Source: a virus (taxonomy: Duplodnaviria > Caudoviricetes). From it: 41,286 nt of DNA. Shown in pieces: positions 497 through 40,344 of this stretch. The stretch spans positions 1-41,286 of the IMG/VR virus record IMGVR_UViG_3300049015_000086. One strand, given 5' to 3'. The notes below the pieces were generated by a model. The model did not search any database. It was not told the DNA's origin and saw only the letters and a program-made list of their open reading frames with translations. The stretch's first letter is position 1. Each line of letters starts with the position of its first letter. Position numbers and translations under genes: made by a program.

Positions 497-527
497 AAAA
501 AAGCCCTGATAATTCAGGGCTTTTTTT
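497..527. terminator. Bidirectional intrinsic terminator marking the left end of the phage operon
   Basis: AAAAAAGCCCTGA-taat-TCAGGGCTTTTTTT hairpin with A and T tracts, between convergent genes. Confidence 0.85.
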
Positions 528-1173
528 ATTTAATAACCAGTCCCCCAACAAGGCCTGCCGCTAACCATACGTACCATTTCTGGTACCATTTCTGATGCAC
601 AGCTATTTCGGCAGCCTCCATTTCCGTTACCTTGATATAAGGGTTATCATAAGAGACCTCAGTTGTCAACGTTTCCTTTCCAAGAAACCACCTGCGTTTT
701 GTGCCGGTGATGATGTAAGTTTTTGTCAACGTAGAAAAAGGAGAAAGCGTTAAGCTATCGTTAGTAACCTTATAGCCTACAGTATACCACTTATTTTTGA
801 TAAGTCCGCTGCGAACAAAAGAACCGGCGGAATCACCTATCGGTATTTTTTCTTCAAACTTTACAGCAATGGTGTCGATAGTGATTTCGCTCTGAGCCTG
901 TGTGACTGATTTGACTGAGACAAATTCTTCTGCAAGCTTGCTAAGTTCCTTGTCCTTTTCAATGATCAGGGATTCAAATTGCTGTTTATCTAATTGTAGT
1001 GTCCTGATCATTGCGGTTTGGCTCCCTAACCTGTTCGTGTAATAGCGTATTGAATCTGTCAGGGTATTGGTATTGGCCTGAGCCAAATCTTTAATTTTAG
1101 AATTCTGTTGGCATTGACGTACTATTATCACTAAAAGAAAAAGTAATAGAGCATAAGGAATTATCCTTTTCAT
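526..1173 (-). CDS. Spanin-like lysis protein (candidate unimolecular spanin)
   Basis: Directly downstream of endolysin with 4-bp overlap; N-terminal hydrophobic stretch ending in Cys (LLVIIVRQC), coiled-coil and beta-rich middle, C-terminal hydrophobic WYQKWYVWLAAGLVGGLVIK. Confidence 0.6.
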   Translation of the reverse strand: MKRIIPYALLLFLLVIIVRQCQQNSKIKDLAQANTNTLTDSIRYYTNRLGSQTAMIRTLQLDKQQFESLIIEKDKELSKLAEEFVSVKSVTQAQSEITIDTIAVKFEEKIPIGDSAGSFVRSGLIKNKWYTVGYKVTNDSLTLSPFSTLTKTYIITGTKRRWFLGKETLTTEVSYDNPYIKVTEMEAAEIAVHQKWYQKWYVWLAAGLVGGLVIK

Positions 1174-1721
1174 AAATTAATCCATTTGCAAATCTTGCCA
1201 TCCTGTACTTCGTTAAATGTGTCGCTGCTATTGTATTTGTTCAGTAGCGAACGCCACGTATGGCCAAATGCCTTTTCAAAGTGCGGGTAATCGGGGAAGG
1301 ATTTCCAATTGCCGCCCCATGTCCAACCTTTTGATATGAAATAATTTGCAGCTTCTGTCCAGTCTGCTTTAAGATCGCAGTCAAAATCAGCTTTTGTATC
1401 CCACGAGGCGGTTTCAAAAGTCCCGTTACCATCTTTATCAAATAGCAGCACAATATCAAGGGCCAAGCCGTAATTATGCATAGATTGCCCGGCTTTTGCG
1501 TTAGTAACCTTTGTAATGCGTTTGCCGTTTTTATCGATTATTTTAGTACGTCCCAGGCTATATAGATCCTCCTGCTGCTCAAAAGTCCTTAAGGTTTGGG
1601 AAAATCGCAACCTTAAGTTATTGCCAAATAGTCTGTTATTGATGTGTTCATAAATTCCTAAGGCTTCCTTCCGGATTTGAGGATGGAGTTTCTGCATTCT
1701 CTCAAGTGTCAATTGATCCAC
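1170..1721 (-). CDS. Endolysin, M15 family zinc peptidase (L-Ala-D-Glu peptidase-like)
   Basis: Motifs RTFEQQEDLYSLGRT, VTNAKAGQSMHNYGLALD (SxHxxGxAxD) and WGGNWKSFPDYPHFE; GTG start. Confidence 0.92.
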   Translation of the reverse strand: MDQLTLERMQKLHPQIRKEALGIYEHINNRLFGNNLRLRFSQTLRTFEQQEDLYSLGRTKIIDKNGKRITKVTNAKAGQSMHNYGLALDIVLLFDKDGNGTFETASWDTKADFDCDLKADWTEAANYFISKGWTWGGNWKSFPDYPHFEKAFGHTWRSLLNKYNSSDTFNEVQDGKICKWINL

Positions 1722-1970
1722 TTTTTTTATTTTTTTGCAAATCGGGGGTCATGTTTTTAGATACTCATAAAAAGCGATACATCTTTAACAGCATATTGGA
1801 AACTTCAAAAAGTACACCGCCAACCGTGCACAATGTCAGTTTGTTGATTAACCCAATTACATTGCGCTTAATGTAAAGTCTCTTAATTTAAAAGCATGGT
1901 AGATGCTTACTGTGAATTTTACTTATTTTTACTGCGATTAACACCACTACCATGTACGATTTTCAAAAAA

Positions 1971-3041
1971 ATGTATAAAAATAATATCATCCAGCCCTTA
2001 TTTTTTTTTTGGTTTTGTACCAAAATAATTGCGTTTAATGCCTGGGTGCCGGGAAAAAGGTTGTTACCTGTAGTGCCGCTGTTCGATTTTTTAGAAGTTG
2101 AAAATAGTATACATTTGTTGCTTTATCTGGTGTCACTATTTTGCATATCTGTTTCATTCTTTAGGCCTGTAAGGCTTATAATATTGATATTAATTATTAA
2201 TGAACTGATCTCCTGCAACCTCGACGTTTTAAGATGGCAACCTTATCAGTATATGTATATATTTATAGCGCTCTGCTATTTATTTGCACCTAACATTGAA
2301 AAACTAAAATCCTATGTTCTTATAATATTTTCCTCTACATATATATACGCCGGATTACAAAAGTTTAACGGAGGCTTTTTATACTCAGTATGGGAAAATT
2401 TAATTTTAAAAAGGTTTTTAGAGGTTGAACCTTTACCTGGCATTCATTATATAGGGCTCATTATTCCTGTAATAGAAATTGCCGCCGGTATTGCTTTGTT
2501 ATTTTGCTACAAAAGAAAGGCAACGGTTGTAACGCTTATTGCTATGCATATTTTTTTAGTTATAATGTTAGTAAAGGTTAGGCACAATTATATAGTATTG
2601 CCTTACAATTTGTTTATGGCTTTTGCCTTGATAGCTTTTTACGATTGTAAAAAATATGGCTTATTGTATTATAAAAATTGGCAAGCTTTTGTATTGGTGA
2701 TATTTTGGGGACTACTCCCAGCTTTTAGTTTTATAGGGTTGTGGGATCATTACTTATCATCATCCTTATATTCAGGCAGGCTTGAAAATTTATATATAAG
2801 TCTAGATGATCCAAATGGACATTATAAAAAATATTATAGTAAAGCCAAAAACCCAATATCACCAGGTCAAAAATACATTTCTGTTCAGCATTGGGCTATG
2901 GCTGAAACCTACACAACACCATATCCTGAAATATGGTACTATGCAAAATTTAAAGAGAAATTTAATAAAATGCATCCGTATGATAATACAGTCTTTGTTA
3001 TTAGAAAATATCCATACAAATCTAATGTAAGATTAGAATAA
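1971..3041 (+). CDS. Polytopic membrane protein (HTTM/DoxX-like), AT-rich antisense cargo inside the lysis cassette
   Basis: Many hydrophobic segments; motifs DVLRWQPYQY, YIYAGLQKFN, IEIAAGIALLF; start taken as ATG 1971 (ORF is open from 1896). Confidence 0.6.
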   Translation: MYKNNIIQPLFFFWFCTKIIAFNAWVPGKRLLPVVPLFDFLEVENSIHLLLYLVSLFCISVSFFRPVRLIILILIINELISCNLDVLRWQPYQYMYIFIALCYLFAPNIEKLKSYVLIIFSSTYIYAGLQKFNGGFLYSVWENLILKRFLEVEPLPGIHYIGLIIPVIEIAAGIALLFCYKRKATVVTLIAMHIFLVIMLVKVRHNYIVLPYNLFMAFALIAFYDCKKYGLLYYKNWQAFVLVIFWGLLPAFSFIGLWDHYLSSSLYSGRLENLYISLDDPNGHYKKYYSKAKNPISPGQKYISVQHWAMAETYTTPYPEIWYYAKFKEKFNKMHPYDNTVFVIRKYPYKSNVRLE

Positions 3042-3067
3042 GATTCTCAGTAAGAGTCCGGATCTAA

Positions 3068-3616
3068 TTATTTTAGTTCTTCACCCTTTATTTCTTTGTA
3101 TATTCTCCAGCCTTCACGAATAATCGATCTAGTCTTTTGAAGTAAGTCAAAGCCCATTCTTTTAATATTCTCAAAGAAAATGGAATAGGACTCCACTATA
3201 CAAAAGAATAATGTGACAATAGTTGTTAAGGTTAGTTTTTGGGTGGTGAGGTGTGAAGGCTCAAATTCTTTGATAAGAAATATTGATTCAAGTATATAAG
3301 CAGTTATAATTCCTAACCCATAGGTTATAAACTTAACCCCGGAAGTTCTCATTTTCTCTGATGTAAAGAAATGACTGCTGATGGTTGCAGGTTCCGATAA
3401 TCCTTTTTTATACTCAATCCAGGATGCTATAACCCCGGTTATGAAGTCGAATACAAAAAGAATGGCTAATAGCAATAAAGTTTGCTGAGCAGTAGAAAGT
3501 CCTGGAAGGATGATAATGAAAAACATTGTAACCCATCCACTAATTGTTGTGAAGATATACTTTAATGCACAGCCTATCTTGTCAAAGAGGTGTAGATATG
3601 TTTTAAAATCATGCAT
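3068..3616 (-). CDS. Phage holin (holin 4_1-like)
   Basis: DFITGVIAS, SEKMRTSGVKF and ESYSIFFENIKRMG motifs; several TM segments; lies upstream of endolysin. Confidence 0.8.
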   Translation of the reverse strand: MHDFKTYLHLFDKIGCALKYIFTTISGWVTMFFIIILPGLSTAQQTLLLLAILFVFDFITGVIASWIEYKKGLSEPATISSHFFTSEKMRTSGVKFITYGLGIITAYILESIFLIKEFEPSHLTTQKLTLTTIVTLFFCIVESYSIFFENIKRMGFDLLQKTRSIIREGWRIYKEIKGEELK

Positions 3617-4484: not shown

Positions 4485-6236
4485 TTATGTATGCCTGCTA
4501 AATGTAACTTTACATGATTTTTTCCTTAACGAATCTAAAGCATTCCCCAGACTTGCTACCAAAATGAGGTAATTGTCGACTAAAGGGTTTATTATTGTCG
4601 AACCGGATGCAGCTATTGATGTAGCATAGTCATTAGCTGATGCGGTTGAAAAGTTATATCCTTGTAAAGTTCCACCTGCTTTTAATGTAAATTCCCGGCT
4701 GAACCTGTGGTACAGGTTGGTTGAACCTGCCGTTTGAATTGCAATTTGTGTTGGTGTACCAACGAGATCGGGAGTGGAATTCAAATAAAATTTCATCACT
4801 GTGCTCCCGGCAGTCCCTGTTTTCTCTATTTTGGAAATGACTTCAAAAATGCCCTCTGGAGAGTTTGCAGGAATCATGCAGGTGCCTAGTACCACTTCAG
4901 AAACAGTACCCGTTACTGGTGAACCATCCATGGTATCACAAAGCAATACCTGAGCAGTATGTTCCTGTAAAGATATTGTACCTGAGTTATTGGGAAGCAA
5001 GTAGCTACGGTCTGATGTTAGATTTGCTAAATCAAATACAAAGGCACTATTCCCATTAAAGAAACTAATATTTATAAATTCAGTGTTTTCATAATTAAAC
5101 AAATATCCACTGTCGTCTAAATCATTAAATTTTATTCCATTTATTGAATTTGTGGTTGTATTCCCACTATCCGTAATACTTTGTAAATCGAGTGATGCAT
5201 TGGCATCAGCCAAATCGCTCATCATCGCAAAATTATCGTTTGCCTCCTTAGCCGGTATTGTATATTTCACACTTGGGACGATAGGCGCTTGCTGCTCAAT
5301 ATAAACCGTATTCCCATTTGCATGTTGATAGAGCCGGCCGTTACTTAAATGCTGGGTTTGTTCCTGAGTGGCCAGGTGTTTTATTATCACGCTTTTAGTG
5401 GTCGTATTCCCTTGATTGGTAACCTGCTGTAATGTGTTTGCAGCACTTGCCACTACACCGCTTAATAGCTGAAAATCATCCGTTGTGCTTTGTGCTTCAC
5501 CTGCGCCATATGTTACTGCATCCCCTATGAAGAGGTAATCTTTCTGGAACCCACCTATGCTACCCTTAAATAATGTGTATCCCTCCGATAAAGGTTGCAC
5601 AATAATTGGCGCATGCAGGTTTAGCCACTGGTCAATAGTCTGCCCGGTTATGCTGCCGTAATTAATGATATCAGTACTCTCATCATTCTCTATATCTTCA
5701 AGCGAAGTGGAAGGCTGGCTGTAAATTAGCTCCAGGTTAGTTTTAAATAGTTGTGTACCGCCTATTCCGTATGTGCCTTTTCCTCTTCCTATCATTTTGA
5801 ATTTGAACACAGGTGGTGTAAATCCATCTACTTGCTGGACCGCAGACCTACTCACGAACAGGACCGATTCGATTTCACTCACAGTATAAGTGGGTAGTGC
5901 ATTTATAAGTTCTAAGGCTGCCTCAAGGGTGATTTCATTAGAACCTGCATTAAAGTATTTTCTAATCGTTTTATTATCCTGTACAATTGAACCGCCTAAA
6001 GTCAGTCGTGCAAATACTACATCCAATAATGCTTCCTGAAGTGCTTCCGCACTTTGGAACGTGTCACCGTTAACCGAAAATTCACTGTAATGGGTGTATT
6101 CGATGAGTACATCGCCGTTCTCATAACAGTTATAGATACTGAGCTTTTCACCGGCAGGGCGCGTTATGTAGTTTTTCAGGTACTGGACACCATTAAGGCT
6201 GAATTTTCTGTCGGATATTGTTTCTATAATGTTCAT
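4485..6236 (-). CDS. Putative tail fibre / receptor-binding protein
   Basis: Position between adaptor and holin; Gly/Thr/Ser-rich; repeated motif TLQQVTNQGNTTT / DLQSITDSGNTTT; YLLPNNSGTISL linker before a C-terminal domain. Confidence 0.65.
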   Translation of the reverse strand: MNIIETISDRKFSLNGVQYLKNYITRPAGEKLSIYNCYENGDVLIEYTHYSEFSVNGDTFQSAEALQEALLDVVFARLTLGGSIVQDNKTIRKYFNAGSNEITLEAALELINALPTYTVSEIESVLFVSRSAVQQVDGFTPPVFKFKMIGRGKGTYGIGGTQLFKTNLELIYSQPSTSLEDIENDESTDIINYGSITGQTIDQWLNLHAPIIVQPLSEGYTLFKGSIGGFQKDYLFIGDAVTYGAGEAQSTTDDFQLLSGVVASAANTLQQVTNQGNTTTKSVIIKHLATQEQTQHLSNGRLYQHANGNTVYIEQQAPIVPSVKYTIPAKEANDNFAMMSDLADANASLDLQSITDSGNTTTNSINGIKFNDLDDSGYLFNYENTEFINISFFNGNSAFVFDLANLTSDRSYLLPNNSGTISLQEHTAQVLLCDTMDGSPVTGTVSEVVLGTCMIPANSPEGIFEVISKIEKTGTAGSTVMKFYLNSTPDLVGTPTQIAIQTAGSTNLYHRFSREFTLKAGGTLQGYNFSTASANDYATSIAASGSTIINPLVDNYLILVASLGNALDSLRKKSCKVTFSRHT

Positions 6237-6238
6237 CC

Positions 6239-6736
6239 TTATCCTATTTTAGTAAATCTTAATACCCCCGAAAGATTTGTATTACCACATTTAAAATCAG
6301 GATGCTTTGTCCTGATGAGATAGTTGCGTACATTTTGCCATAACTGCATGGCAGCGTCTCTGTTAAGGGTGTAAATCGTTTTCTTAGAGGATACTTCCGC
6401 AGGCCTGCTGTCAGGATTTAGTTTCTCTACTACCGAAAATGGGGTGTCTGTTACCGATGAGAACATTATATAGCGTGCATAAGCAAAGTAAGCAAGTACC
6501 ATCTTCAGGCCATAATTCGTGTAGCTAATCCCATCATGTTCATAAATTCCTCCTGTGAGCAATTCTTCATGATCGGCAGGCGAGGCGATAATTTTATTGT
6601 AAAGGTTCTCGCCTAATAATGGCTGCAGGTCCAGCAGTTGCGCATCCAATATCATTTCGTTAAGCTTGTCGTTGTTTGGCGTTTTAGAAAGTTGCCGGTA
6701 TTGGGCTATATCACTCCTGGTTATTAATAATTGCAT
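6239..6736 (-). CDS. Putative head-tail adaptor (DUF6712-like)
   Basis: Immediately after the portal; AQLLDLQPLLGENLY and GLKMVLAYFAYARY motifs resemble Bacteroidota phage DUF6712 proteins. Confidence 0.55.
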   Translation of the reverse strand: MQLLITRSDIAQYRQLSKTPNNDKLNEMILDAQLLDLQPLLGENLYNKIIASPADHEELLTGGIYEHDGISYTNYGLKMVLAYFAYARYIMFSSVTDTPFSVVEKLNPDSRPAEVSSKKTIYTLNRDAAMQLWQNVRNYLIRTKHPDFKCGNTNLSGVLRFTKIG

Positions 6737-7868
6737 CGTCTATGAGTTTTATAGGTTCTACATTAAGGCTTGGATGATCCTGTGATTTTTCCAACAACTG
6801 ATTAATGACTGATGCAAGCAATACGCGCTCCTTGGTCGTGTTTTCCCAATAGGTACGCTTCATTTCCCTTATGGCTTCACCTGAATTACCAAACAGCGTG
6901 GCCTCATTGGTCTTAACCAGTCCGGCAGGCAGGTTATTGAAGGCAACAAGAATGTTCTCCCTCACACTCGTTTCAGTATAATTAAAGAGCTTGTCATCGA
7001 TTTTGCTTTCTATTTGTTTTACCAATAATGCATCCTCAAGTTTTTCTCCTGCAAAATCCATCTCCAGGCACAACACGCCACCGGTATTTTGCGCGCCAAG
7101 GCTGTCTTTAATCGCCTGTTGGAAACGCTCCCTCTCACTTTCAGCATCCAGTAGCGCTTTGCTGCCCGTTTCAAGGCCTTCGCCAACAAGCGGCCGTGTT
7201 ACCACAAGCGTGTTGCCAAAGAACCCTTTGCGTAGCAGCCTGTTCTTGTAAACTGCTGCCTGCGCTTCGCTGTCACAATCTTCGGCAACAGAGTCTATGC
7301 GCGAAAGGGGATAGAGCAATTTGGTGTCCATGTTTACAAACAGCACCTGGCCTTTGTAATGTTCCCAACCACCCGCTTTCTCTACCTGAGCGTCTATAAC
7401 TTTTTTGCGGGGATTAAAAATGTCTATCAGTTGTATGTCGCTACGCTTTGGTTTAAGCCATTCTTTACAGACGGCTATTTTACCCGCATAGTCATTGCTG
7501 TCCATTCGCCCAATGCGGCACCATTCATACGGAATGACACTGAAGTCGCTTATCTGGTACAGGGCATTCCAGTTGACATGAATAAATACCCCCCGCTGCT
7601 TTACTAAATCATCGGCTACATCATCGGCAAAGTCAATCAGCTTCAGGTTCTTTTCCTTGTTGATGATGAGTGAGTCATTTTCTGCGCCAAAGCCTTTACC
7701 GATGAGGTACTGCACCATGATAGCGGCTGCCGACTTCGCCGTTACGCTGTTGTTTATCAGCCTGTCCATGCGTTCAGGATAGCCGTTGTCGACATCGTTA
7801 GAATATACATCAGCCGATTTATTCCACGGTGTAAGCCTTTTCCAGACTTCAATCAGTAGCGTTCTCAT
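6711..7868 (-). CDS. Putative portal protein
   Basis: 385 aa; DNGYPERMDRLINNSVTAKSA N-terminus, GAQNTGGVL, ENILVAFNNLPAGLV and GNSGEAI segments resemble Bacteroidota siphovirus portals; synteny. Confidence 0.7.
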   Translation of the reverse strand: MRTLLIEVWKRLTPWNKSADVYSNDVDNGYPERMDRLINNSVTAKSAAAIMVQYLIGKGFGAENDSLIINKEKNLKLIDFADDVADDLVKQRGVFIHVNWNALYQISDFSVIPYEWCRIGRMDSNDYAGKIAVCKEWLKPKRSDIQLIDIFNPRKKVIDAQVEKAGGWEHYKGQVLFVNMDTKLLYPLSRIDSVAEDCDSEAQAAVYKNRLLRKGFFGNTLVVTRPLVGEGLETGSKALLDAESERERFQQAIKDSLGAQNTGGVLCLEMDFAGEKLEDALLVKQIESKIDDKLFNYTETSVRENILVAFNNLPAGLVKTNEATLFGNSGEAIREMKRTYWENTTKERVLLASVINQLLEKSQDHPSLNVEPIKLIDDAIINNQE

Positions 7869-8332
7869 TATGAATCTACACTTGAAATATCAGTTGCATC
7901 TCCTGTGGGCTCTTTTGAAGCATCAGGCTTTACTCTTACAATACGTTTACGTTTCTTTTTGCTTGGCGCTTCGGTTTCTGCCGGAGCATTTGGGTCGGGT
8001 ATCAACGCAAAGTACCGTTCACCGTTCTTCTGTTCAAGCAGTCTCGCAGCAAATTCATCCGTGATGTTGCCGTTGTTTACCAATATCTGTGAGCCAAATT
8101 CTAACGGAATGTTCTCATATTTGGCGTGAAGCCTGTATTTGCATGTGTTTGCCATTTCTTTGTAGTAGTTTTTATATCGTGTCAAATAGTCGTTAAGGCA
8201 CCTGGGACAGGAAGGGTTCACCTTTTCCTTAAAGATTTTTGTGTATTCCTGCAGAAAACTTTGCAGGTACCCTGTACCATCACTACCTCTGGAGGCAGCG
8301 ATGGTTTGGATATCCATTGTAGTAAAGTCCAT
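7868..8332 (-). CDS. Phage protein of unknown function (CPRC motif, basic low-complexity tail)
   Basis: One-base TAATG overlaps with both neighbours in the structural operon. Confidence 0.7.
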   Translation of the reverse strand: MDFTTMDIQTIAASRGSDGTGYLQSFLQEYTKIFKEKVNPSCPRCLNDYLTRYKNYYKEMANTCKYRLHAKYENIPLEFGSQILVNNGNITDEFAARLLEQKNGERYFALIPDPNAPAETEAPSKKKRKRIVRVKPDASKEPTGDATDISSVDS

Positions 8333-8931
8333 TACGGAGCTGTTTGCGCAAACTTATTGCTGAACGCTGTTTTAGTTGCTGCATACGTTACGTCAAGCAA
8401 TGTCCTTGGCATGGTGGTTTCTTCAAAACCGTCAGATGATGCCAACTCAAACATGATCATGTTGTCGTTTTCTTTTGAGCTGTTGGTCATGGTCATCAGC
8501 TCAAGGCCCGATGTCATTCCCAGTACTTCAAATGCTTCTGCACTGTTTGTACCTTTCCAAACCTGTTCTACCACAGCAATGTATTTCGCGCCTTTGCTAA
8601 GGCTGTCGGCCTGCTGTTTATTGGCTGCGCTTGGGTTAAAGATCACGCCGGAGAACGTGTGCTTGAACTTGTCAGGCGCGTTCTCTTTCTTGACCAATTC
8701 CCACGCTTTACCGCTCGATTGTTTTACCCCTGTTAGCAAAAAGCCTGTCTTGCCCGCTTTCAGCTGAAGGTTGGTTAGCAATATCCTGTTGTTTGCATCA
8801 ATTGTGGTATTGGCCACATCAATATCATCTTTATTGATAAGCACTACGTTCTGTTCTATACCGCCTACGGGCGCATTGGCGCAGTCAAATAAAATGTCTG
8901 CTGTTAAGTTTCCTGTACAATCTACTGGCAT
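8332..8931 (-). CDS. Putative major tail (tube) protein
   Basis: 199 aa, beta-rich, N-terminal CTGNLTADILFDC..GG; follows the capsid gene; function inferred from size and position. Confidence 0.55.
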   Translation of the reverse strand: MPVDCTGNLTADILFDCANAPVGGIEQNVVLINKDDIDVANTTIDANNRILLTNLQLKAGKTGFLLTGVKQSSGKAWELVKKENAPDKFKHTFSGVIFNPSAANKQQADSLSKGAKYIAVVEQVWKGTNSAEAFEVLGMTSGLELMTMTNSSKENDNMIMFELASSDGFEETTMPRTLLDVTYAATKTAFSNKFAQTAP

Positions 8932-31710: not shown

Positions 31711-31900
31711 CTGACGCGTTACATAGAAAAATCAGTGGAAATGTTTCTGATCAGTTCAATCTGTGTTCCCTTCTTCGAAAGCTCAGCTGCCTGCACTCCG
31801 TGTCGTAAGAATATCATCAAATCTTTATCTAAATATTAACTATTGCGTATTGGCTATTTTGATGCTTTGGTTGTAAATTCGGTCAAAAAATTCTATTGCT

Positions 31901-32131: not shown

Positions 32132-32134
32132 TTA

Positions 32135-32359
32135 TTATTTAAATATTTTTCCTGCCTTCTTTATAAGCAGTAGTTGCTTTGCTTTAAAGATCGCTTTGCA
32201 CATGCGTAGCTTAGCCAGCCATTTTACCATAACCGCCCCCGGTATCAGGTCAAGGTAGAGCATCAGGGATTTTTTCTCTTGTTCGGAATATACATATTCT
32301 ACGGTCATGAGCGGCCCCCCTGTCTTAGCCTGAACGGTATCACCAATATTTAGTTTCAT
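32135..32359 (-). CDS. DUF2158 (YodC-like) small protein
   Basis: IGDTVQAKTGGPLMTV ... VKW signature. Confidence 0.7.
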   Translation of the reverse strand: MKLNIGDTVQAKTGGPLMTVEYVYSEQEKKSLMLYLDLIPGAVMVKWLAKLRMCKAIFKAKQLLLIKKAGKIFK

Positions 32360-32668
32360 AATAAGCTAAGGTGGTGAAAGTTAATGGCGTGGCTCATTAA
32401 TTAACGCAGTATTGTGATATGGACTTCCCGGCTTCTCTAAGATTGCCGCGCTACGCCCGCATGACAAGAATACGCTCCGGCTTTCAGCCGCCCTTCTCAA
32501 GAGGGGAACAGCTTCAATCATTCTTTTAGAGATTCTTCGATTTTGTTTCACCAGCCTTTCAGGAAATTAAGACAAATGTTGTAAGTATTAGATGCGATAC
32601 CATAAAAGAATACTATTGAAATTTATTACTTTCGCTGTATCATAAATGATTCTTTAAACCATTAAGAA

Positions 32669-33097
32669 ATGCGAAGAAACGGCGAAATCATTATTATTGA
32701 AGATGATGAAGAAGAGATAAACATTATAGAAATGGCGTTTACCAAACTCGGCTATCCTAATAAGATCACTTTTATTGCCGACAGTACCCAGGTTATCGAC
32801 TATTTGTCTAATGACAGCGTAAACCCGTTCCTTATTATTTCTGACATAAACATGCCGAAACTCGACGGGTATACCCTGAGGGGGCTCATCTCCAATGATC
32901 CGCAGCTGGCTGGGAAGTGCGTACCTTATATTTTCCTGAGCACGTCAGACCTCAATGAGCATGTAATCAAGGCTTATAAAATGTCGGTACAGGGGTATTT
33001 CAGGAAGCCTTCGGGTTTTAATGATTACTCGAAAATGCTGGAAAAGATCGTAACGTACTGGAAGGAAAGCATTGTCCCAAAACCTGAGGTAGCATAG
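32669..33097 (+). CDS. Single-domain response regulator receiver
   Basis: IIIIEDD, IISDINMP (phospho-acceptor Asp), FLSTS, YFRKP. Confidence 0.92.
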   Translation: MRRNGEIIIIEDDEEEINIIEMAFTKLGYPNKITFIADSTQVIDYLSNDSVNPFLIISDINMPKLDGYTLRGLISNDPQLAGKCVPYIFLSTSDLNEHVIKAYKMSVQGYFRKPSGFNDYSKMLEKIVTYWKESIVPKPEVA

Positions 33098-33220
33098 GCT
33101 GCATGCACACTATTCCATCCTTTCGCTGCCATCCGGCAAATTTTATTTTTATTCGCTAAAATAGGCGTGGTTCCGCCAAAATATTATAAAAGCCCCCGGT
33201 AAAGGAGGCTCTATAATAAT

Positions 33221-33508
33221 TTAGAAATCGAACAGGTCACCAAGGAAAGAGTCGCGCTTTTTCTTTTTGTAGTATTCGTCGTTGTGGCGCGGGTCGTTGC
33301 TGTGGCGGTGGTCTTTATCATGTCCGTACTGCTGTTGCGGGGGACGCTGCGTTTGCTGTGGCTGTTGGTTAAACGTCATGGAGCGCTCAATGATCTTATC
33401 GAGCTCGCCACGGTCCAGCCATACGCCACGGCAAGATGGGCAATAATCTATTTCTACGCCGCTGCGGTCGGCCATTACGAGCGTTGCATCACAATTGGGG
33501 CATTTCAT
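33221..33508 (-). CDS. zf-TFIIB-like zinc-ribbon protein
   Basis: MKCPNC..GVEIDYCPSCRGVWLDRGELDKI and KKKRDSFLGDLFDF tail. Confidence 0.88.
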   Translation of the reverse strand: MKCPNCDATLVMADRSGVEIDYCPSCRGVWLDRGELDKIIERSMTFNQQPQQTQRPPQQQYGHDKDHRHSNDPRHNDEYYKKKKRDSFLGDLFDF

Positions 33509-33617
33509 ATTTTAGCATTTTTAGTTTATATGTGTTTCAGTATTTAGCTAAGTTAAGAATTCCAACTGTGACGTACAACGGGGGCGTGGGGAGATTTTAC
33601 CCAAAGCGGCTGAAGTA

Positions 33618-33947
33618 TTAACGACGCTTCAAAGGTATTTTTATACTATCGGGCCTACCGCTTGTTAATATAAAGTACTTGCCAAACCAGACGGCAACTT
33701 CGCTCTTAGACATGCCCGTGTAAGGCAGGTGCCTGGCAATTGCTATCTCTACAATGCGGAGGTCAATTATGGTATGGCGTGGACGGTACAACTCCAGAAA
33801 TGTATTGGCAAACAAAAGTACTTCATATCCTTGCCCTGTGTCCATGATTTCCGTTCCCAGGTCGTGAGCGGCCGGGTTGTCCCTGTTGTCCACTGTCCAG
33901 GTATAATGTTTTAGCTTAAGGTCGCTTTTATTGTAGTTAAGTTCCAT
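33618..33947 (-). CDS. Hypothetical protein
   Basis: ATG ORF of 109 aa, protein-like composition. Confidence 0.55.
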   Translation of the reverse strand: MELNYNKSDLKLKHYTWTVDNRDNPAAHDLGTEIMDTGQGYEVLLFANTFLELYRPRHTIIDLRIVEIAIARHLPYTGMSKSEVAVWFGKYFILTSGRPDSIKIPLKRR

Positions 33948-34100
33948 GAAGACAGTATTATAAGTATAAAATTACCGATTTCTGGAACTTATAATATTAC
34001 ATCATTAAGGTGAAATCTTGCATAAAGAAGTCATGCAAAATGCGATAAATATAAACAAATTGATACCTTAGCGCTAAGCAACCAAAACCTACCTAAACCC

Positions 34101-34451
34101 ATGACGCTTCCGCAAAAGATAATGCTGCCATTTATCGCCATCCTTATAAACGCTGTAATAATATTCGCCGCATTTAAGCTATTCCCCGATTTTGGTGATA
34201 ACAAGGAAATGGGCATGGTTTTTTTGGGCGCAATACCCTTTGTACTTTTAAGTGTCTTCACGGCACTGGTCGTTGCCCTCTGGCTTCCTAAATGGTTTTA
34301 CGTTACTGCTGTGGTGCTGTGCGGAGTGCTATGGTTCAATAGCGAAGGAGCGGTAGATAACCGGTTTACGTGGTTCCTTACCAATGTTGTTTCGATTGCG
34401 ATTGCCTATAACATCCTCAAATATATGCAGGTAAAGAAAGGCAGGCTTTAG
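34101..34451 (+). CDS. Small four-TM membrane protein
   Basis: Four hydrophobic segments and basic C-terminus. Confidence 0.7.
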   Translation: MTLPQKIMLPFIAILINAVIIFAAFKLFPDFGDNKEMGMVFLGAIPFVLLSVFTALVVALWLPKWFYVTAVVLCGVLWFNSEGAVDNRFTWFLTNVVSIAIAYNILKYMQVKKGRL

Positions 34452-34457
34452 CATCCT

Positions 34458-34844
34458 TCAGCCGCGCATATATATTCCCTGGAGTACGTGTACAAGCTCA
34501 TCGTAGCTGTCGGGCTTAGTTATGCACCGGGCCGCCAGTTGTTTGATCTTTTCTTTACAAACTTCAATGTAATTGGTAGTGGAGTAAATAAATATATGTA
34601 TTAGCTTTAGCGAAGGTACCTTACTGACTTCTTCCATGAATTCGACGCCGTTCATGCGAGGCATGTTCAGGTCAAGGAATATCACGTCGGGCAACGCAGT
34701 GTCCTGCATTAATTTCCCAAGCGCATCTTCGGCACTGTCGTATGCCGTACAATTTATTGCGGGAGATATCTTGCCGGTCGCGTCAATGAAAAGTTCCCGA
34801 TCGTCGCGGTCATCATCGATGAGTACAACATTTGTGAATTTCAT
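34458..34844 (-). CDS. Single-domain response regulator receiver
   Basis: VVLIDDD, IFLDLNMP, IYSTT, ITKP. Confidence 0.92.
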   Translation of the reverse strand: MKFTNVVLIDDDRDDRELFIDATGKISPAINCTAYDSAEDALGKLMQDTALPDVIFLDLNMPRMNGVEFMEEVSKVPSLKLIHIFIYSTTNYIEVCKEKIKQLAARCITKPDSYDELVHVLQGIYMRG

Positions 34845-34966
34845 GATAGTGTTGTTATTTGGTATAGTAAAGCACGCTAAAAAATGGCTATTATATGCAT
34901 TAATAGTTATAATTTGGCTTATATATAACGTATATAAGAATTATCTTCTTATAAAAAATAGAAAAA

Positions 34967-34982
34967 CAGTATGTCAAAGAAC
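34967..34982 (-). promoter_or_regulatory. boxA-like antitermination sequence, copy 1
   Basis: Minus strand GTTCTTTGACATACTG, resembling rrn boxA; inside a 28-bp stretch repeated exactly at 35549-35576. Confidence 0.5.
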
Positions 34983-35010
34983 GGAGAGGAAGTATTTTGA
35001 ATTGTGAATG

Positions 35011-35147
35011 TCCTCACCCCCGGCCCCTCTCCGAAGGAGAGGGGAGTAGCTTCACTTAGCCTGCGCTCGACTTCCGATAGCTATCGGGACAGCGTGACTG
35101 CGGGGACTTCTGAGTGAAGTTGTCATCCTGAGCTTGTCGAAGGATCT
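35011..35147. repeat. Composite REP unit, duplicated at 35629-35750
   Basis: Same module order; 36-bp identity 35112-35147 vs 35715-35750. Confidence 0.8.
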
Positions 35148-35212
35148 GTCATAGTCGAATATAATATGGCGAGCTTCTCTTGCAGAGATTGAATATTATT
35201 TATATTAGCGGC

Positions 35213-35581
35213 ATGTTTTACGAATTAACCACTGGCCTTAGATTCTTTATGACTATCATAGCCGCGACACTCGTTGTCGTGGGCTGTTGTATATATGCAT
35301 TGTTCGACCCGGGGCCGCATGTGCTTCTTTATCTTATTGCTTCGTTGATGCTACTCAACTTTTCAGTTTTTGGCGGCCTTGTTTTTTCATGGTTATCAAA
35401 ATCTCATTATTTTTTTATTGCTTCAATTATTGCTATGTTTATAATAGCGGCAGGTTATACAGTATTGGTTGAGGATATATTCATATTCCTGCCGCTATCA
35501 CTATTTTCCATAATTGCCTCTTACTTTATAGTTAGAAGCTCTGGTAAAAAAAACAGTATGTCAAAGAACGGAGAGGTATAA
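35213..35581 (+). CDS. Small four-TM membrane protein, possible distant paralog of 34101..34451
   Basis: ATG 35213; four hydrophobic segments; FSVFGGLVFSWL vs LSVFTALVVALWL. Confidence 0.65.
   Translation: MFYELTTGLRFFMTIIAATLVVVGCCIYALFDPGPHVLLYLIASLMLLNFSVFGGLVFSWLSKSHYFFIASIIAMFIIAAGYTVLVEDIFIFLPLSLFSIIASYFIVRSSGKKNSMSKNGEV
35554..35569 (-). promoter_or_regulatory. boxA-like antitermination sequence, copy 2
   Basis: Minus strand GTTCTTTGACATACTG, about 435 bp downstream of the replication genes. Confidence 0.5.
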
Positions 35582-35582
35582 T

Positions 35583-35990
35583 TCTTCTTTTGTCTTGAAA
35601 CAAGAGAAGCAAAAGTTCAGGCAGCCGACCTCACCCCAGCCCTCTCCAAAGGAGAGGGAGCAGCTTCACTAAACCTGCGCTTTGACAGGGCTCGGTGTGA
35701 ATATAGTTACGCAGGAGTGAAGTTGTCATCCTGAGCTTGTCGAAGGATCTCATTCAGTTCTTCTTTTGTCTTGAAACAAAAGAAGCAAAAATTCAAGGCT
35801 GCGACTTCTTAGGCTACAAATCAATAGCAATTGCTAAAACATCTGAACTCGCTGCGCTCAGGCAGCAGATGTTTCTTTACGCATTTGCTCCTGATTTGCT
35901 TAACGCCACAAAGCCGAATGCCATAGCTTCACTCCAATATACCCGTCGTTTGCTCCCCTCTCCTTGGGAGAGGGGCCGGGGGAGAGGACT
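35583..35990. repeat. REP/MITE-like cluster including a long-hairpin element (35761-35934) related to 11778-11971
   Basis: ttcttttgtcttgaaacaaaagaagcaaaa..ggct start and atgccatagcttcactc end shared. Confidence 0.8.
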
Positions 35991-36004
35991 AACAAATCAA
36001 CAAC

Positions 36005-36538
36005 TCACCGCTTCTTCCATATCCTCCTCAAATTATTCGAGTAATCAAACTCGCTGCGGGAACTGAAGTCGCGGTGCGAGCGAAGCGTGTATTCTTCAGC
36101 TACCTGGCACCGCTGCTCAAAGTAATCTTTAAAGTAAGCCAACACCTTAGGTATCGTCAGGCTCTCGTAGAACTCGCCATAACTGCCTGATATCACCCTG
36201 CGGAAGAGGTACGTGAGGTCGCTCACCTTCAGGGTATAATAAGCCTCATTTATCTCCAGCGCGCACAGCTCTATCTGGTCTTCGGTCATGGGCTTGTTCA
36301 GGTTCAGGATGTCGTTCAGGTACACCAGCCACGCCATGGTAAAGCCTATCGTGAATTCCTTCCCCTTAACCCGCTGCAGGGTGCCTATTGTAGGCGCTTG
36401 TGCATTCATGGCACTGGCAATGGTTGGCAGCTTTGTGGCGTGCTTCATGCAATTACCCGGACTGTAAACGCTGAGCAATCTTTCGTTTGAAGTCGTCGCT
36501 ATAGCGCACTTTGCTCTTTCCTGCGGCAGGTTTTCCAT
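36005..36538 (-). CDS. Phage protein downstream of the replication initiator (possible helicase-loader-like)
   Basis: MTEDQIELCA..YYTLKVSDL..FRRVISGSYGEFY pattern; synteny; alternative start 36448. Confidence 0.6.
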   Translation of the reverse strand: MENLPQERAKCAIATTSNERLLSVYSPGNCMKHATKLPTIASAMNAQAPTIGTLQRVKGKEFTIGFTMAWLVYLNDILNLNKPMTEDQIELCALEINEAYYTLKVSDLTYLFRRVISGSYGEFYESLTIPKVLAYFKDYFEQRCQVAEEYTLRSHRDFSSRSEFDYSNNLRRIWKKR

Positions 36539-37188
36539 TGTCTTTCAGTTCAAAAAATCCTTTCCAGCCCTTGCCCATGCTCTGGTGCATAATGGCTATG
36601 GCGGTTTGTTCGTTCAGCGCCGAGAGGTTGCCCAGCTCTGCCACAGCGGCCTGTTCGCTCTGCGCGCTCCGGTAGCGCTGGTTGTGTTCCTTGGCACGGT
36701 ATTGCTTCCATGCCTCCCACTGCTGCGTGAATTCTTCCGAAGCGAAAGGGTAAACTACGGCCGTCGCCAATGGTTTTTCTCCCGAACCCTCTTTTCCTTT
36801 TCCGGTTACAACTTCAATTTCATTTTCAATTTCAATTTCCATATGTTGGTCATATGATGAAGATGTGCTTTTAACTGAAGTTTCTTTTTCTGATGTTTTA
36901 CCCGATCGGTTTTTACGTCTGCTTTCGCTGTAAGCCCTGCGTTTATTGATGCCATCCATAACCCATTCTATGTAAAAGCCCGCCGGGGTTTCTACCAGGA
37001 CATTTTTAAGCTGGGCGATCTCTTCTGCCGAAAAATTCTTTGTGAAGAAATTAAACTGTGCCGCAGACACGCAGGTGTTCCTCATATGTTCGCACATAAT
37101 ACGGTCAGGCAACCTGCACGGGTTCGCTTAGGCATTGGGTATCTCGCAGGTAATCGCCGGGATAGAATAGAAATGCCGGGTCTTTCAT
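36453..37188 (-). pseudogene. Phage replication initiator (DUF1376/YdaU-like N-terminus) broken by a frameshift after codon 27
   Basis: ATG 37188, TAATG-coupled to the upstream gene, gives MKDPAFLFYPGDYLRDTQCLSEPVQVA then TGA at 37105-37107; the rest (DRIMCEHMR..RRAYSESRRKNR..WEAWKQYR..SMGKGWKGFF) continues in the +1 frame. Confidence 0.8.
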
Positions 37189-37439
37189 TATACTCTTACC
37201 AGGTTATCAATTATCACGTTGTTATAAGTGCCTTTGCTTCCGCAGATGTGGAATTCCAGTTCGGCAACATCGCCTGGAAGGAAGTCCTGCAATACCTCTA
37301 TTTTGGTTCCCAGGGCAGAAGGGTAAAACACCCGCCCGCTGGCCTCCTGCTCAAAGTGGAGCTGCTGTACTGCTGTACCTAATTTTGTTGTTTTTATGTC
37401 GCCTATGGCGGTGATAATGCCTTTTATTTTGTAGTTCAT
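37188..37439 (-). CDS. DUF3127-like OB-fold (SSB-like) protein
   Basis: YKIKGIITAIG..FLPGDVAELEFHICG..YNNV. Confidence 0.6.
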   Translation of the reverse strand: MNYKIKGIITAIGDIKTTKLGTAVQQLHFEQEASGRVFYPSALGTKIEVLQDFLPGDVAELEFHICGSKGTYNNVIIDNLVRV

Positions 37440-37481
37440 TTTCTTTTAGATTTAAAATTTAATGATTGAAAAATTGAAAGA

Positions 37482-37925
37482 TTGATGGAACACAGATTGA
37501 ACAGATTTGACAGATTCCCACTGATTTATGGTGCCGAATGAACATTGATTGTGAGGGTTCTGTCATTCCGACGTAAGGAGACACGAGGCGATAGACGACT
37601 GGCGAAGCAAATCTCAATAAAGAGATTCTTCGACTACACTACGTTTCGCTCAGGATGACAAGTCGCCCGAGTGATGTTGGCTCCCCTCTCCTTGGGAGAG
37701 GGGCTGGGGGAGAGGACTTACTCTTCTTTTGTCTTGAAAACAAGGGGCGAAAAAGCTTCACTCTCGCCGACCTCACCCCAACCCTCTCCAAAGGAGAGGG
37801 AGTCGCTTCACTCTTCCCTGAAAGTAGCACGTGCTGTAGTATACGTTTGAGTGTTCCCCTCTTGAGAGGGGGGTGTGTTATCTAATAATCTAACGGTCTA
37901 ATAATCTAACGGTCTAATAATCTAA
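37482..37925. repeat. Composite repeat field inside the early operon
   Basis: cacagattgaacagatttgacagat, gtcattccgacgtaagg, gagattcttcgac..ctcaggatgaca, REPs near 37682 and 37770, (tctaataatctaacgg)n at 37881-37925. Confidence 0.8.
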
Positions 37926-38173
37926 CTATCCTTTTTAGCATTCTCCAGACACAGCCGGTTGGCTATGTGGTTAAAATCGAGGCAGCCTATCTCTCTGCCG
38001 GTTAGTTTTGTGTAGGTCACGGCAGGGGCAAGGTTGGCCAGCGCATGGAAGAAGTCGGCGGCATTGCCATTGTCTTCCAGATCGTGGACGTTGATGTGGT
38101 TCTCGCAGTCTTCCTCAAACAATTCCTGCAACTGGCTAAGGATCTTTATGGTGTATTCTTCTTGTTTATTCAT
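37922..38173 (-). CDS. Small early phage protein
   Basis: ATG 38173 (MNKQEEY); DFFHALANLAP..DFNHIANRL. Confidence 0.65.
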   Translation of the reverse strand: MNKQEEYTIKILSQLQELFEEDCENHINVHDLEDNGNAADFFHALANLAPAVTYTKLTGREIGCLDFNHIANRLCLENAKKDS

Positions 38174-38303
38174 CTTTTGGATTTTTTGAAAGGGAACACA
38201 GATTTGACAGATTAAAGCGATTTCCACTGATTAATATGGGTGCGCCTATAGTAGAATATCTGTGATCATCAGTTAAATCGGTTGAATCTGTGTTCCATTT
38301 TAA

Positions 38304-38567
38304 TTAATTATAATTCACGGCTCCCACTTCCTGCGCTACGAGGTTGTTGTACTGTATGCCGCTGTTCTTGGATATCTTTCCTTCCAGGGTTACGGTTACC
38401 TGTATTTCGTCGTTTTCCTTGAAGGCGGCGATATCGTCCATGCGGCGTCCGCGGAATTCTACAAAGGCACGCTGGCGGTGGTCGGGCACCAGGGTTACTA
38501 CTTTTTTCTCGTGTCCGGCTGTGTTGCGGTACTCAATGCTTTCGATTGTTCCTTTGATTGTCATCAT
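38304..38567 (-). CDS. DUF3127-like OB-fold (SSB-like) protein
   Basis: MTIKGTI..FVEFRG..FKENDEIQVTVTLEGK..YNNL. Confidence 0.7.
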   Translation of the reverse strand: MMTIKGTIESIEYRNTAGHEKKVVTLVPDHRQRAFVEFRGRRMDDIAAFKENDEIQVTVTLEGKISKNSGIQYNNLVAQEVGAVNYN

Positions 38568-38621
38568 TTTGTTTTTTTATTTTAGATTGAAAAATTGAAG
38601 TATTGAAATATTGTTGAGTTG

Positions 38622-39129
38622 TGGTTTCACAGAGATTCCCGGAGGTTTCACAGAGACTCGCAGAGCTTTTTTTTATGAACAGCACCAATTCTTTGTGTAT
38701 CTCTGTGCCTCCTCTGTGCATCTCAGCGTAATTGCAGCTTATTCAAAATTTATAATTCAGCATTTAAAATAATTTGCAGCTTCGTTATCTTCTCCTCCAG
38801 TTCCCTTAAATCCCTTTCCTGTTCGGCCATTCGGTTAAAGACGGTGTAATAGGGGAGTGTCTTCAGGTTTTGAATCTGCTTTTCGCATTCGCGGATGCGG
38901 GTTTTGAGCTTCATGGTTAGTTGTTGCGTTGTTGAGTTGTTGAGTTGTTAGGCTTTGGGTTTGGGGTTGTTGGTTTCACAGAGATTCCCGGAGATTTCAC
39001 CGAGACTCACAGAGTTTTATTATAAACAGTTTTTAGAGTAACCCTTTGTGTATCTCTGCGCCTCCTCTGTGCATCTTTGTGTAATAGCTGCCTGCATTTA
39101 AAATTTATAATTCAACATTTAAAATAATT
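38622..39129. repeat. Direct repeat of about 155 bp (38622-38774 and 38971-39129), CACAGAG..CTCTGTG hairpin family
   Basis: tggtttcacagagattcccgga..ctttgtgtatctctg..aaaatttataattca-catttaaaataatt in both. Confidence 0.85.
38750..38914 (-). CDS. Small coiled-coil early protein (54 aa, not in the ORF track)
   Basis: MKLKTRIRECEKQIQNLKTLPYYTVFNRMAEQERDLRELEEKITKLQIILNAEL*, on the phage strand. Confidence 0.55.
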   Translation of the reverse strand: MKLKTRIRECEKQIQNLKTLPYYTVFNRMAEQERDLRELEEKITKLQIILNAEL

Positions 39130-39487
39130 ACTCCGTTATCTTATATCGCTTATCACTATAAAAGTGCATTATTGCACGGTTCTCTAATTCGGTGGTTTCA
39201 TATCGCTTAAATTTCATTCGTAATTCGGTGACGGGTTTCGGGTTGGGGGTTACGGGTTTCGGGTTATGGGTTTCGTCCTCTTCTCTTTTGGCCAGTGCCT
39301 TTTGGCTATTGGCTAACTCCTCATATAGCTTCTTCAAATTCTCACTTACGACCAGTTTATTCTCCTTCACTAATGTGGCATTTTCCACTTGTTGTTGGCC
39401 TTCATACGAGGCTAAAAAATGATTATAGGCCGACTTTATTACACTTAGTTCCACAATTTCTGCTGCTATTGTGTTGGTTGTACGCAT
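39128..39487 (-). CDS. First gene of the leftward early operon, coiled-coil protein without a recognisable HTH
   Basis: Divergent from the repressor; contains an NPKPVT repeat. Confidence 0.65.
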   Translation of the reverse strand: MRTTNTIAAEIVELSVIKSAYNHFLASYEGQQQVENATLVKENKLVVSENLKKLYEELANSQKALAKREEDETHNPKPVTPNPKPVTELRMKFKRYETTELENRAIMHFYSDKRYKITE

Positions 39488-39494
39488 TTTTGTG

Positions 39495-39560
39495 TATCTT
39501 TGTTCAAGTATTATGCAAAATTAAGTGCAATATTCCACATTTGCAAGTGTAATTGTGGAA
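39495..39560. promoter_or_regulatory. Immunity switch: leftward promoter, possible rightward promoter and candidate operator
   Basis: Minus strand TTG(39544-39546)-N20-TAATTTTG(39516-39523); plus strand TATCTTTG 39495-39502; inverted repeat TTCCACA-N14-TGTGGAA 39533-39560. Confidence 0.6.
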
Positions 39561-39612
39561 AATTTCACTCAGAATGGAAATTTAACTTTTGGTGTCAGAT
39601 AAGTTTTGGATT

Positions 39613-40344
39613 ATGGAAGCACATGAAATAAGGGAAAGGCGCGAAAAGCTTGGGCTTACGCAAAAAGAGCTGGGCGACCTCATTGGCGCAAGCCGCGAAA
39701 CGATAATTAATTACGAAAAGGGCAAGCCTATCCCGAAGTCGAAAGACGAGATACTAAGCAAGGTCCTGGAGCCGGGGAGTGTATACACTAAGTCGGTGAA
39801 GAGCGAAGTCGTAAAGGAGAGCGACAACTTTGAGAATAAGAACGGCAACCGCTTTATCGAACTTCCTAACGGACAGTTCTATATGCTTATGCCTTTAGCC
39901 GAATTCAAGATTCAGGCGGGCCTGCTGAGCCATTACCAGGACGCCGACTTCCTGATGGATCTTAGCCAGCACGGCATTCTTGTCGATAAGCCGGTGCAGG
40001 GGCGTTATGTCGCTTTCCGCGTTAATGGCGACAGTATGGATGACGGTTCGAGCGAGGCCATTACCCGCAATAGTGTGGTGTCTACCCGCGAGCTACAACG
40101 CCATTTATGGAACGGCAAGCTGCGTTTTAAGGACTTTCCGTATTGGGTCATCTATACCACACAATCAAAGATGCCGCTCCTTAAGGAGATTGTAGACCAT
40201 AACGTAGAGGAGGGCTATATTACCTGCCACTCCCTGAATGACAGCCCTGAATTCTCCGACTTCCGCCTTAATATGAACGATATCCAGGCGCTGTTCTACG
40301 TGATTGATGTGAGCCGGACAGTGAGCAAGAAGATGGTTTATTAG
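39613..40344 (+). CDS. CI-like repressor: XRE HTH plus S24 autopeptidase
   Basis: REKLGLTQKELGDLIGASRETIINYEKG HTH; Ala-Gly site IQAG; catalytic Ser in VNGDSM; candidate Lys in LLKEI. Confidence 0.92.
   Translation: MEAHEIRERREKLGLTQKELGDLIGASRETIINYEKGKPIPKSKDEILSKVLEPGSVYTKSVKSEVVKESDNFENKNGNRFIELPNGQFYMLMPLAEFKIQAGLLSHYQDADFLMDLSQHGILVDKPVQGRYVAFRVNGDSMDDGSSEAITRNSVVSTRELQRHLWNGKLRFKDFPYWVIYTTQSKMPLLKEIVDHNVEEGYITCHSLNDSPEFSDFRLNMNDIQALFYVIDVSRTVSKKMVY

Follow-up and report, generated by a model that had tools for sequence, protein, structure and literature searches.

A candidate domesticated, integrase-less prophage element with conserved virion genes in a Flavobacterium clade

Genes and features of the window

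The DNA analysed is IMG/VR virus record IMGVR_UViG_3300049015_000086 at its full length of 41,286 bases (the window), which IMG/VR classes as a provirus (CheckV 100%). It carries packaging, head, tail and lysis genes with a CI-like repressor, and comparison with related genomes indicates that it is very probably one copy of a domesticated, integrase-less prophage, permanently locked into the chromosome in one Flavobacterium clade. Domestication had been proposed in an earlier note made from these letters, and is supported by clade-wide presence, integrase loss, a junction with the host gene recO, purifying selection and largely vertical descent. Evidence from the window covers the record's own 41,286 bases; neighbouring DNA beyond both ends lies outside the data.

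Open reading frames (ORFs) of the window matched Pfam or PHROG families for TerS, TerL, portal, ClpP-type protease, tape measure, holin, endolysin and a helix-turn-helix (HTH) repressor, in agreement with the intact frames previously described for these genes. The same description of capsid, tail and spanin genes held in part: the capsid is supported by Atlas and Foldseek, the latter from a low-confidence structure model (predicted local distance difference test, pLDDT, 55), the tail tube is a lead only, and the spanin was placed by position and a hydrophobic stretch, as family searches with this ORF (526-1173) gave no match naming a spanin. Neither a tyrosine nor a serine recombinase was found in the window, as had been stated. 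The phage-like features are as follows, with protein lengths in amino acids (aa).

1..483, plus strand: lipocalin-like gene, occupying the integrase position of wild relatives
526..3616, minus strand: lysis module (holin, endolysin, spanin candidate)
526-1173, minus strand: spanin candidate (DUF6549), by position and N-terminal hydrophobic stretch
1170-1721, minus strand: M15 endolysin (Pfam/PHROG)
1896-3041, plus strand: opposite-strand membrane protein that splits the lysis module
3068-3616, minus strand: holin (Pfam/PHROG)
4485..6236, minus strand: tail fibre or receptor-binding candidate, N-terminus conserved, rest variable
6239..8332, minus strand: 154-aa ORF, portal and DUF6712 head-tail adaptor candidate (Pfam/PHROG)
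6711-7868, minus strand: portal (Pfam/PHROG)
8332..8931, minus strand: probable tail tube protein (PHROG 19979 virion protein; Atlas 0.86, lead only)
9138..10196, minus strand: major capsid protein, HK97-type, 352 aa (Atlas capsid clusters 0.99; Foldseek capsid matches)
10196..11218, minus strand: ClpP-type head maturation protease/scaffold (Pfam/PHROG)
14770..15251, minus strand: two small conserved ORFs (79 and 82 aa), present in wild phages too
17417..22730, minus strand: tail-tip candidate (737 aa), 98-aa ORF and tape measure protein (928 aa) (PHROG)
17417-20203, minus strand: tape measure
24049..27297, minus strand: four conserved virion-assembly ORFs (189, 147, 168 and 378 aa; the 378-aa ORF is PHROG 12067)
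27595..28920, minus strand: TerL, Terminase_3/PBSX-type family (Pfam/PHROG; TIGR01547 below cut-off)
28904..29437, minus strand: TerS with N-terminal three-helix DNA-binding domain (PHROG 309)
36005..36538, minus strand: DUF6633 initiator partner, likely helicase loader (Pfam), which disappears jointly with the initiator in relatives
36453..37188, minus strand: replication initiator (O-like), frameshifted near 37105
37188..37439, minus strand: second small conserved early protein, 78% to wild phage G435
37922..38227, minus strand: small conserved early protein (PHROG 37916)
38304..38567, minus strand: single-stranded DNA-binding-like protein (DUF3127, PHROG 4932), 74-90% identity in relatives
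39128..39487, minus strand: first early gene (Cro position), a conserved orphan without HTH match
39589..40344, plus strand: CI-like repressor, HTH and C-terminal domain (Pfam HTH_3, PHROG 4)

The fibre candidate has a length of 213-1561 aa in relatives, and its homologue in genome G356 matches tail-fibre PHROGs. The Walker A/B and nuclease motifs of TerL are intact in the alignment, and the four virion-assembly ORFs are, where matched, 43-78% identical to those of the wild phages G435 and G430. The 82-aa ORF (14770-15018) is kept in wild phages and in most elements, even deleted ones; with an HTH-like C-terminus by eye, it is a candidate late activator. The absence of a Cro gene, to which the earlier note drew attention, is real and not diagnostic, as the two post-repressor ORFs of wild G435 are also without a PHROG match.

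The initiator starts at 37188, reaches a stop after 27 codons and continues in another frame. This frameshift, reported earlier, is matched letter for letter by contigs of two sequencing runs (depth 21 and 61), both of which may be source samples. Proteins of the window were found on metagenome contigs of up to 242 kb, and in three soil runs contig depth was flat from the element interior across the lysis end into DNA past the window. None of the 24 listed runs was a virome or particle preparation; run X24 gave only short, scattered pieces, and a metagenome scan with the spanin candidate returned two distant fragments only.

Integrase loss, chromosomal locus and descent

In GTDB genomes the capsid search detected 26 loci (72-86% identity), of which 23 are titled Flavobacterium. 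All belong to a single Flavobacterium clade, and the gene set and order of the window recur at these loci. A sample of 401 genomes of the genus gave 17 capsid matches (10 at 72-86% and 7 at 23-47%), and a 401-genome sample of the family gave three. The host clade was defined by recO ranking of the genus sample and placement on host trees; its boundary is the analysts' own, and members scoring low on recO may be missed. All 15 clade members recognised in the genus sample carry something at issue here: the element in ten, a remnant beside recO in two and a sister cluster in three.

The locus, which the earlier note proposed to compare across related genomes, is shared in that the lysis end adjoins recO in 19 of 30 genomes; strain MSM5 has that locus by its other flank, and in three of the 30 the locus could not be resolved. 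In outgroups recO is followed by ileS, and the element of MK4S-17 is inserted exactly between the two. The last lysis gene is 11 bases or fewer from recO in 11 of 14 genomes, six of which have an identical 8-base overlap.

Wild relatives of the element keep an integrase, which the elements lack. G435 is a 39.7-kb temperate phage with terminal repeats and a tyrosine integrase beside the spanin gene, and G430 is a provirus with a tyrosine integrase in the same position. The late genes of G435 are ordered as in the window, and its capsid, portal and TerL are 68-83% identical (TerL 83%). It differs in its tightly packed genes and in approximately 15 kb of early genes for recombination, helicase and methylase functions, a region that the elements have mostly lost; in the host elements the repressor-to-terS stretch measures 1.6-10.2 kb, cargo counted in. 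A distant prophage (L106-L107, G379:C12) has a capsid of the same family, a serine integrase and sigma-factor-like genes, and by its sequence is a wild relative with another integration system. Among 16 IMG/VR records with this element's capsid (11 proviruses, 4 linear, 1 with terminal repeats), an integrase is present in only the two most distant (68-69%). In the head-protein tree all elements cluster together (FastTree support 0.999), separate from G435, G430 and three prophages that are more distant. The cultured phages phi10:1 and 11b have only TerL in common with the window (69% and 58%).

The fetched stretches of 19 genomes contained no tyrosine recombinase, and the nearest was approximately 75 kb away from the repressor; three of the contigs involved end less than 9 kb from the repressor. 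Serine recombinases were not found in the elements among 21 records, and att-like repeats were not above control except for one 18-mer in 1 of 18. Assembly joints at repeats were not accepted as excision.

Purifying selection was assessed by the ratio of nonsynonymous to synonymous substitution rates (dN/dS), using simple counting estimates and medians over unsaturated pairs. Medians were 0.045 for portal (16/325 pairs), 0.059 for TerL (7/136), 0.084 for capsid (47/378), 0.096 for repressor (19/231) and 0.145 for protease (106/351), compared with 0.052 for the host gene gyrB (111/351) and 0.159 for recO (7/231). Core-gene values in 15 close pairs were 0.045-0.101, and the sister species F. subsaxonicum and F. 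zepuense, neither of which has the replication genes, showed a value of 0.050 over 2362 codons (dS 0.75). The range of 0.05-0.15 for packaging and capsid genes supports the suggestion that structural genes are under selection and not in neutral decay.

Element dS follows gyrB dS in nine pairs (r 0.92, ratio 1.03). A first host tree (15/23 splits) was discarded, as it used four element-linked genes, and unlinked markers were used instead. Between the element tree and the unlinked rpoBC-tuf tree, 12 of 22 splits are common when the latter is built from nucleotides and 10 of 22 when it is built from protein; the chance level by shuffling is about 0.2, with a maximum of 3-4. The congruence of element and host trees stood at shallow nodes and failed at deep ones, where the host trees conflict among themselves too. 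Judged from these trees and distances, inheritance appears mostly vertical, with partial co-diversification with the host.

A second integrase-less cluster of approximately 28 kb from repressor to spanin lies in three clade species (G356:C1:1632800-1661200, L150-L152; G073:C2; G380:C22). Its repressor (53-57%), TerL (74%) and spanin are related to those of the element, but its head and tail genes differ. The flanks are common to G073 and G356, dN/dS is 0.041 (two genes) and TerL is split in G380. This sister cluster is possibly a parallel domestication.

Regulation, packaging, decay and cargo

Further features of the window, outside the phage gene set, are listed here.

39525..39538, minus strand: palindromic operator candidate GTGGAATATTGCAC, 14 bases, directly upstream of the early promoter's TAATTTTG box
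29452..29460, minus strand: motif AATA(C/T)TTCC, 22-25 bases upstream of terS, in 17/20 elements
8993..40485, no strand: repetitive extragenic palindromic (REP)-like palindromes, six patterns, 46 matches, 0/46 inside 48 listed ORFs
12153..17246, plus strand: cargo with signal-peptide-like N-termini, including three 264-265-aa paralogues, opposite strand to the late genes
29638..31319, minus strand: cargo, HipA-like kinase and DUF3037 pair, low guanine-plus-cytosine content (0.26-0.31), PADLOC PDC-M66A/B match
32135..35581, both strands: cargo, two receiver-domain proteins, Zn-ribbon, DUF2158 and membrane proteins

Repressor residues Ala105-Gly106, Ser145 and Lys195 are invariant in 13 of 13 aligned sequences and in every row of a second alignment; Ala-Gly, Ser and Lys are the pattern of RecA-cleaved repressors. 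The repressor C-terminus gave no S24 match in Pfam, PDB sequences or NCBIfam. The palindrome GTGGAATATTGCAC and the TAATTTTG box, which we take to be the Bacteroidetes -7 consensus, align in all 20 elements. By exact-pattern search the palindrome is a single site, at the element, in four of five genomes, and there is none in the fifth, which has the other cluster type. That the repressor has become a host SOS regulator was rejected on this ground. In the non-canonical LexA system of Bacteroidetes, by contrast, repressor sites precede host SOS genes (PMC8565304).

The AATA(C/T)TTCC motif is conserved although the DNA upstream of terS is unrelated cargo, and by its sequence and position it is a candidate late promoter or packaging signal. 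It was not found before the TerS gene of wild prophage G430. A similar AATA(C/T)TT(C/T) before the protease (9/22) and tail-tube (6/22) genes was not counted, as it resembles a low-complexity leader. The TerS model has pLDDT >90 for residues 21-70, a three-helix N-terminal domain, and Foldseek gave weak matches to Sf6 TerS (E 0.4-0.65). Identity among elements is 46% in the recognition region and 85% in the C-terminal core. The modelled retention of the helices points to packaging starts that would be biased, not random. Elements measure 21.9-48.9 kb and wild G435 39.7 kb; short copies would therefore fit a head of ancestral size.

The 24 tabulated relatives comprise 19 in which the virion set is retained, one frameshifted 454 assembly and four deleted copies. 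Within the 19 complete relatives, two have no spanin homologue, one has a split spanin and the lysis end of MSM5 falls outside view; the initiator and its partner are gone together in seven. All four deleted copies keep the repressor and three keep lysis genes. The remnant L093 (G205:C174, 6546-9891), beside recO, has only the repressor, holin, endolysin and spanin left, and from this gene content may be a lysis cassette under repressor control. An inverted repressor-to-tail block was seen in MSM5, in F. coralii and in three virus records (L008 with L232, which is MSM5; L014, L175, L176 and L181); the inversion brings the repressor gene beside the head protease gene and leaves the late genes running in two directions. 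MSM5 was not accepted as a deleted copy, since its absent block was found inverted on another contig. The F. akiainvivens copy has frameshifts, which may be 454 errors (PMC4616177); no prophage region is reported in that genome note.

The many REP-like palindromes that had been noticed in the gaps were recovered, with 46 matches in the window compared with 0-1 in 10 Markov shuffles. They are denser inside the element than in the flanks of EBPR (24 vs 0), G356 (25 vs 0), F. subsaxonicum (7 vs 1) and Sd200 (8 vs 0). The long residence read from them did not survive: orthologous elements hold 0 to 44 and both wild phages none, so the repeats are taken as a mark of host-like DNA and not of age, and their number was rejected as a clock. 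At 26188-26601 a 138-base composite repeat, made of a CCCCTCTC palindrome with a GAGATTCTTCGAC unit, occurs three times in tandem and resembles bacterial interspersed mosaic elements.

Window cargo sits between rather than within phage genes, and the ORF layout upholds the earlier description. The genes at 32135..35581 were not seen at the same position in relatives. The kinase/DUF3037 pair directly upstream of terS is, from its PADLOC match, a candidate PDC-M66 defence system. The 264-265-aa paralogues (13046-13843, 15345-16139 and 16449-17246) belong to a family without known-family match, with 10 homologues at E 1e-10 or better, which follows the tape measure gene in many relatives and is often duplicated. 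Elsewhere, a SocA/Panacea antitoxin-like gene and partner recur between the early genes and terS (L032, L069, L075 and others), and an AbiJ-NTD4/PDC-S32 gene is cargo in G399 and F. rivuli.

Interpretation and comparison with known systems

An element that does not excise, and often does not replicate, gains nothing from a conserved terminase, portal and capsid, and selection is therefore most likely to act via the host. On these sequences the preferred reading, which is tentative and quite plausible, is that the host-kept element produces tailed particles by which host chromosomal DNA reaches related cells. DNA damage would activate RecA, the repressor would cleave itself and the single conserved operator would be freed, after which the late genes would be expressed. 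The terminase, having no excised genome, would cut the chromosome in situ; the DNA-binding helices retained in TerS make the terminase's own pac site the probable place of cutting. Successive heads would be filled along the chromosome before lysis of the cell. Where the initiator is intact, the region would be amplified beforehand, in the manner of Bartonella run-off replication, and copies without one, the window's included, would package unamplified chromosome; delivery to recipients and recombination there are assumed. The survival of virion genes through replication-gene loss and internal inversions supports this reading. A more specific form of it is possible and is held more loosely: a Bacteroidota GTA (gene transfer agent) of independent origin, caught in mid-domestication with its wild ancestors extant, acting as a lateral transducer with repressor control, pac recognition and lineage-wise shedding of replication genes across ~30 species; three related species would have seen a separate domestication in parallel.

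Several observations weigh against particle-borne transfer by a locked-in element. It is known here from sequence, with no observed particle, packaged DNA, induction or transfer, and the recombinase search in the window ends at the record borders. In G156 an integrase-like frame of 192 aa was seen ~4 kb away from the remnant's repressor. The recO locus is not universal: in 7 of 30 genomes the element occupies a second site, close to bshB1-menF or its cargo, and several clade members have an empty recO site. From its lipocalin flank the window may belong to this second site; homologues of the lipocalin-like gene adjoin the element in the beibuense group. Two loci require a single relocation, or else two integrations with a later loss of the integrase in each. 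In the four deleted copies TerL was not found anywhere in the genome. Unlike described GTAs, the element keeps TerS DNA-binding helices and replication genes, the initiator being present in 12 of 19 complete relatives. Initiator N-termini (at least four kinds, the window's also in a distant species), endolysins and holins (several types of each) and fibres differ in kind among lineages, which indicates exchange. The element tree shares only 8 of 23 splits with gyrB alone, and 6-7 supported host splits (7 for the rpoBC tree) conflict, at depth.

The main rival, unlikely on balance, is a PBSX-like weapon, in which particles are kept for killing related strains and the host DNA in their heads goes undelivered. 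PBSX acts as a tailocin, with host fragments of 13.4 kb packaged in its particles (PMC12946183). A weapon would account for a damage-type repressor, a single operator and lysis genes lying together in the element's one locus, and for fibres that share a conserved N-terminus but range in length from 213 to 1561 aa. The tail of PBSX is contractile, with a sheath; here a sheath gene was not found by Pfam or PHROG, several tail ORFs being without a family. Portal, TerL and capsid are also the most constrained genes, beyond the need of a pure tail weapon, although PBSX keeps them too. Less probable is a selfish grounded prophage, whose virion genes would be upheld by exchange with infecting relatives, or by in-place packaging and RecA-dependent homing of a portion of the element into sister cells. 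The exchanged initiator, endolysin and holin types, the two loci, the deep tree conflicts and the existence of close wild phages (TerL 83% to G435) fit it; set against these, element head genes form one group apart from wild phages, element dS matches host dS, dN/dS is equally low without replication genes and inversions are tolerated.

It is somewhat less probable again that the benefit lies in regulated lysis (DNA or vesicle release), immunity or a safe cargo site, the virion genes riding along or being dispensable. The deleted copies, with repressor in 4/4 and lysis genes in 3/4, the minimal G205 remnant and defence-like cargo (PDC-M66 in the window, PDC-S32 in G399) speak for it. Hitch-hiking, however, cannot hold portal and terminase dN/dS at ~0.05 over dS ~1, and the virion set is kept in 19 of 24 copies. 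An ordinary active prophage with its integrase right outside the record, or a relic in neutral decay, is very improbable and largely refuted for the family. The provirus class, the CheckV value of 100%, window data that end at the record borders and the broken initiator would agree with one or the other, but the integrase position is held by the lipocalin gene in the window and by recO in relatives, no att-like repeat exceeds control apart from the single 18-mer, depth is flat over the lysis end in three runs and dN/dS is far below 1.

If particle-borne transfer by the host-kept element is correct, it moves chromosome between cells across ~30 Flavobacterium species. The case also shows that an entry listed as a complete provirus may turn out to be a locus of the host, and cultured type strains offer graded states: free phage with integrase, locked-in with replication genes, without them, inverted and deleted. 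To our knowledge the GTA systems described so far are few, and nearly all come from Alphaproteobacteria. No title or abstract describing the element or a Flavobacterium GTA, nor any GTA described in the phylum, was found in the open-access literature (subscription papers and supplements were outside scope).

A GTA viriform is defined by caudoviricete-derived particle proteins, mostly random host DNA, endogenisation, a head too small for its own genes, vertical inheritance and delivery (Kogay et al., PMC9662315). Caudoviricete-derived proteins are present at the sequence level (terminase, portal, protease, HK97-type capsid, tape measure). Full endogenisation is indicated by the absence of an integrase in 19 genomes and of att repeats, by the recO junction and by inversions, with the two loci as a caveat. 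Vertical inheritance is indicated by shared splits (12/22 for rpoBC-tuf, 8/23 for gyrB) and the dS correlation (r 0.92), with conflicts at depth. Like RcGTA, BaGTA, VSH-1, Dd1 and VTA, the element has Caudoviricete-derived virion genes, is endogenised without integrase, is largely vertical and is under purifying selection. Unlike them, it has an independent origin from a Flavobacterium temperate-phage family, its own CI-like repressor and operator, a TerS with its helices, replication genes in 12 of 19 complete relatives and one locus that includes the lysis genes. Described GTAs have a TerS without DNA-binding domain and no replication genes (PMC11841831). By anatomy and evolution the element is GTA-like and lateral-transducer-like. 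It is a candidate member only, since it lacks these two traits of described GTAs, and random packaging and delivery would be required as well.

Run-off replication in BaGTA (PMC11841831) has a defective-prophage origin that amplifies flanking DNA and is coupled to packaging, as the element's origin would be, but in the element the origin and virion genes are in one block and the origin genes were lost repeatedly. PBSX of Bacillus subtilis (PMC12946183) is likewise non-excising and repressor-controlled, with a full head, tail and lysis set, a PBSX-type TerL and variable fibres; the element differs in that a sheath gene was not found, in its unrelated host phylum and in the much host cargo and many repeats inside it. 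Grounded or domesticated prophages lose att sites, integration genes and viral core genes (PMC13626063, in whose main text Flavobacterium and Bacteroidota are unmentioned); att and integration loss is alike, whereas the viral core is kept here and lost there. When excision is withheld from P22, phage yield is low and lateral transduction high, since P22 then packages in situ, starting at its pac site (PMC8575938). Both it and the element are integrated pac-type packaging machines under damage induction, as predicted here; in the element the lock-in would be permanent and common to many species, and no infectious genome is expected.

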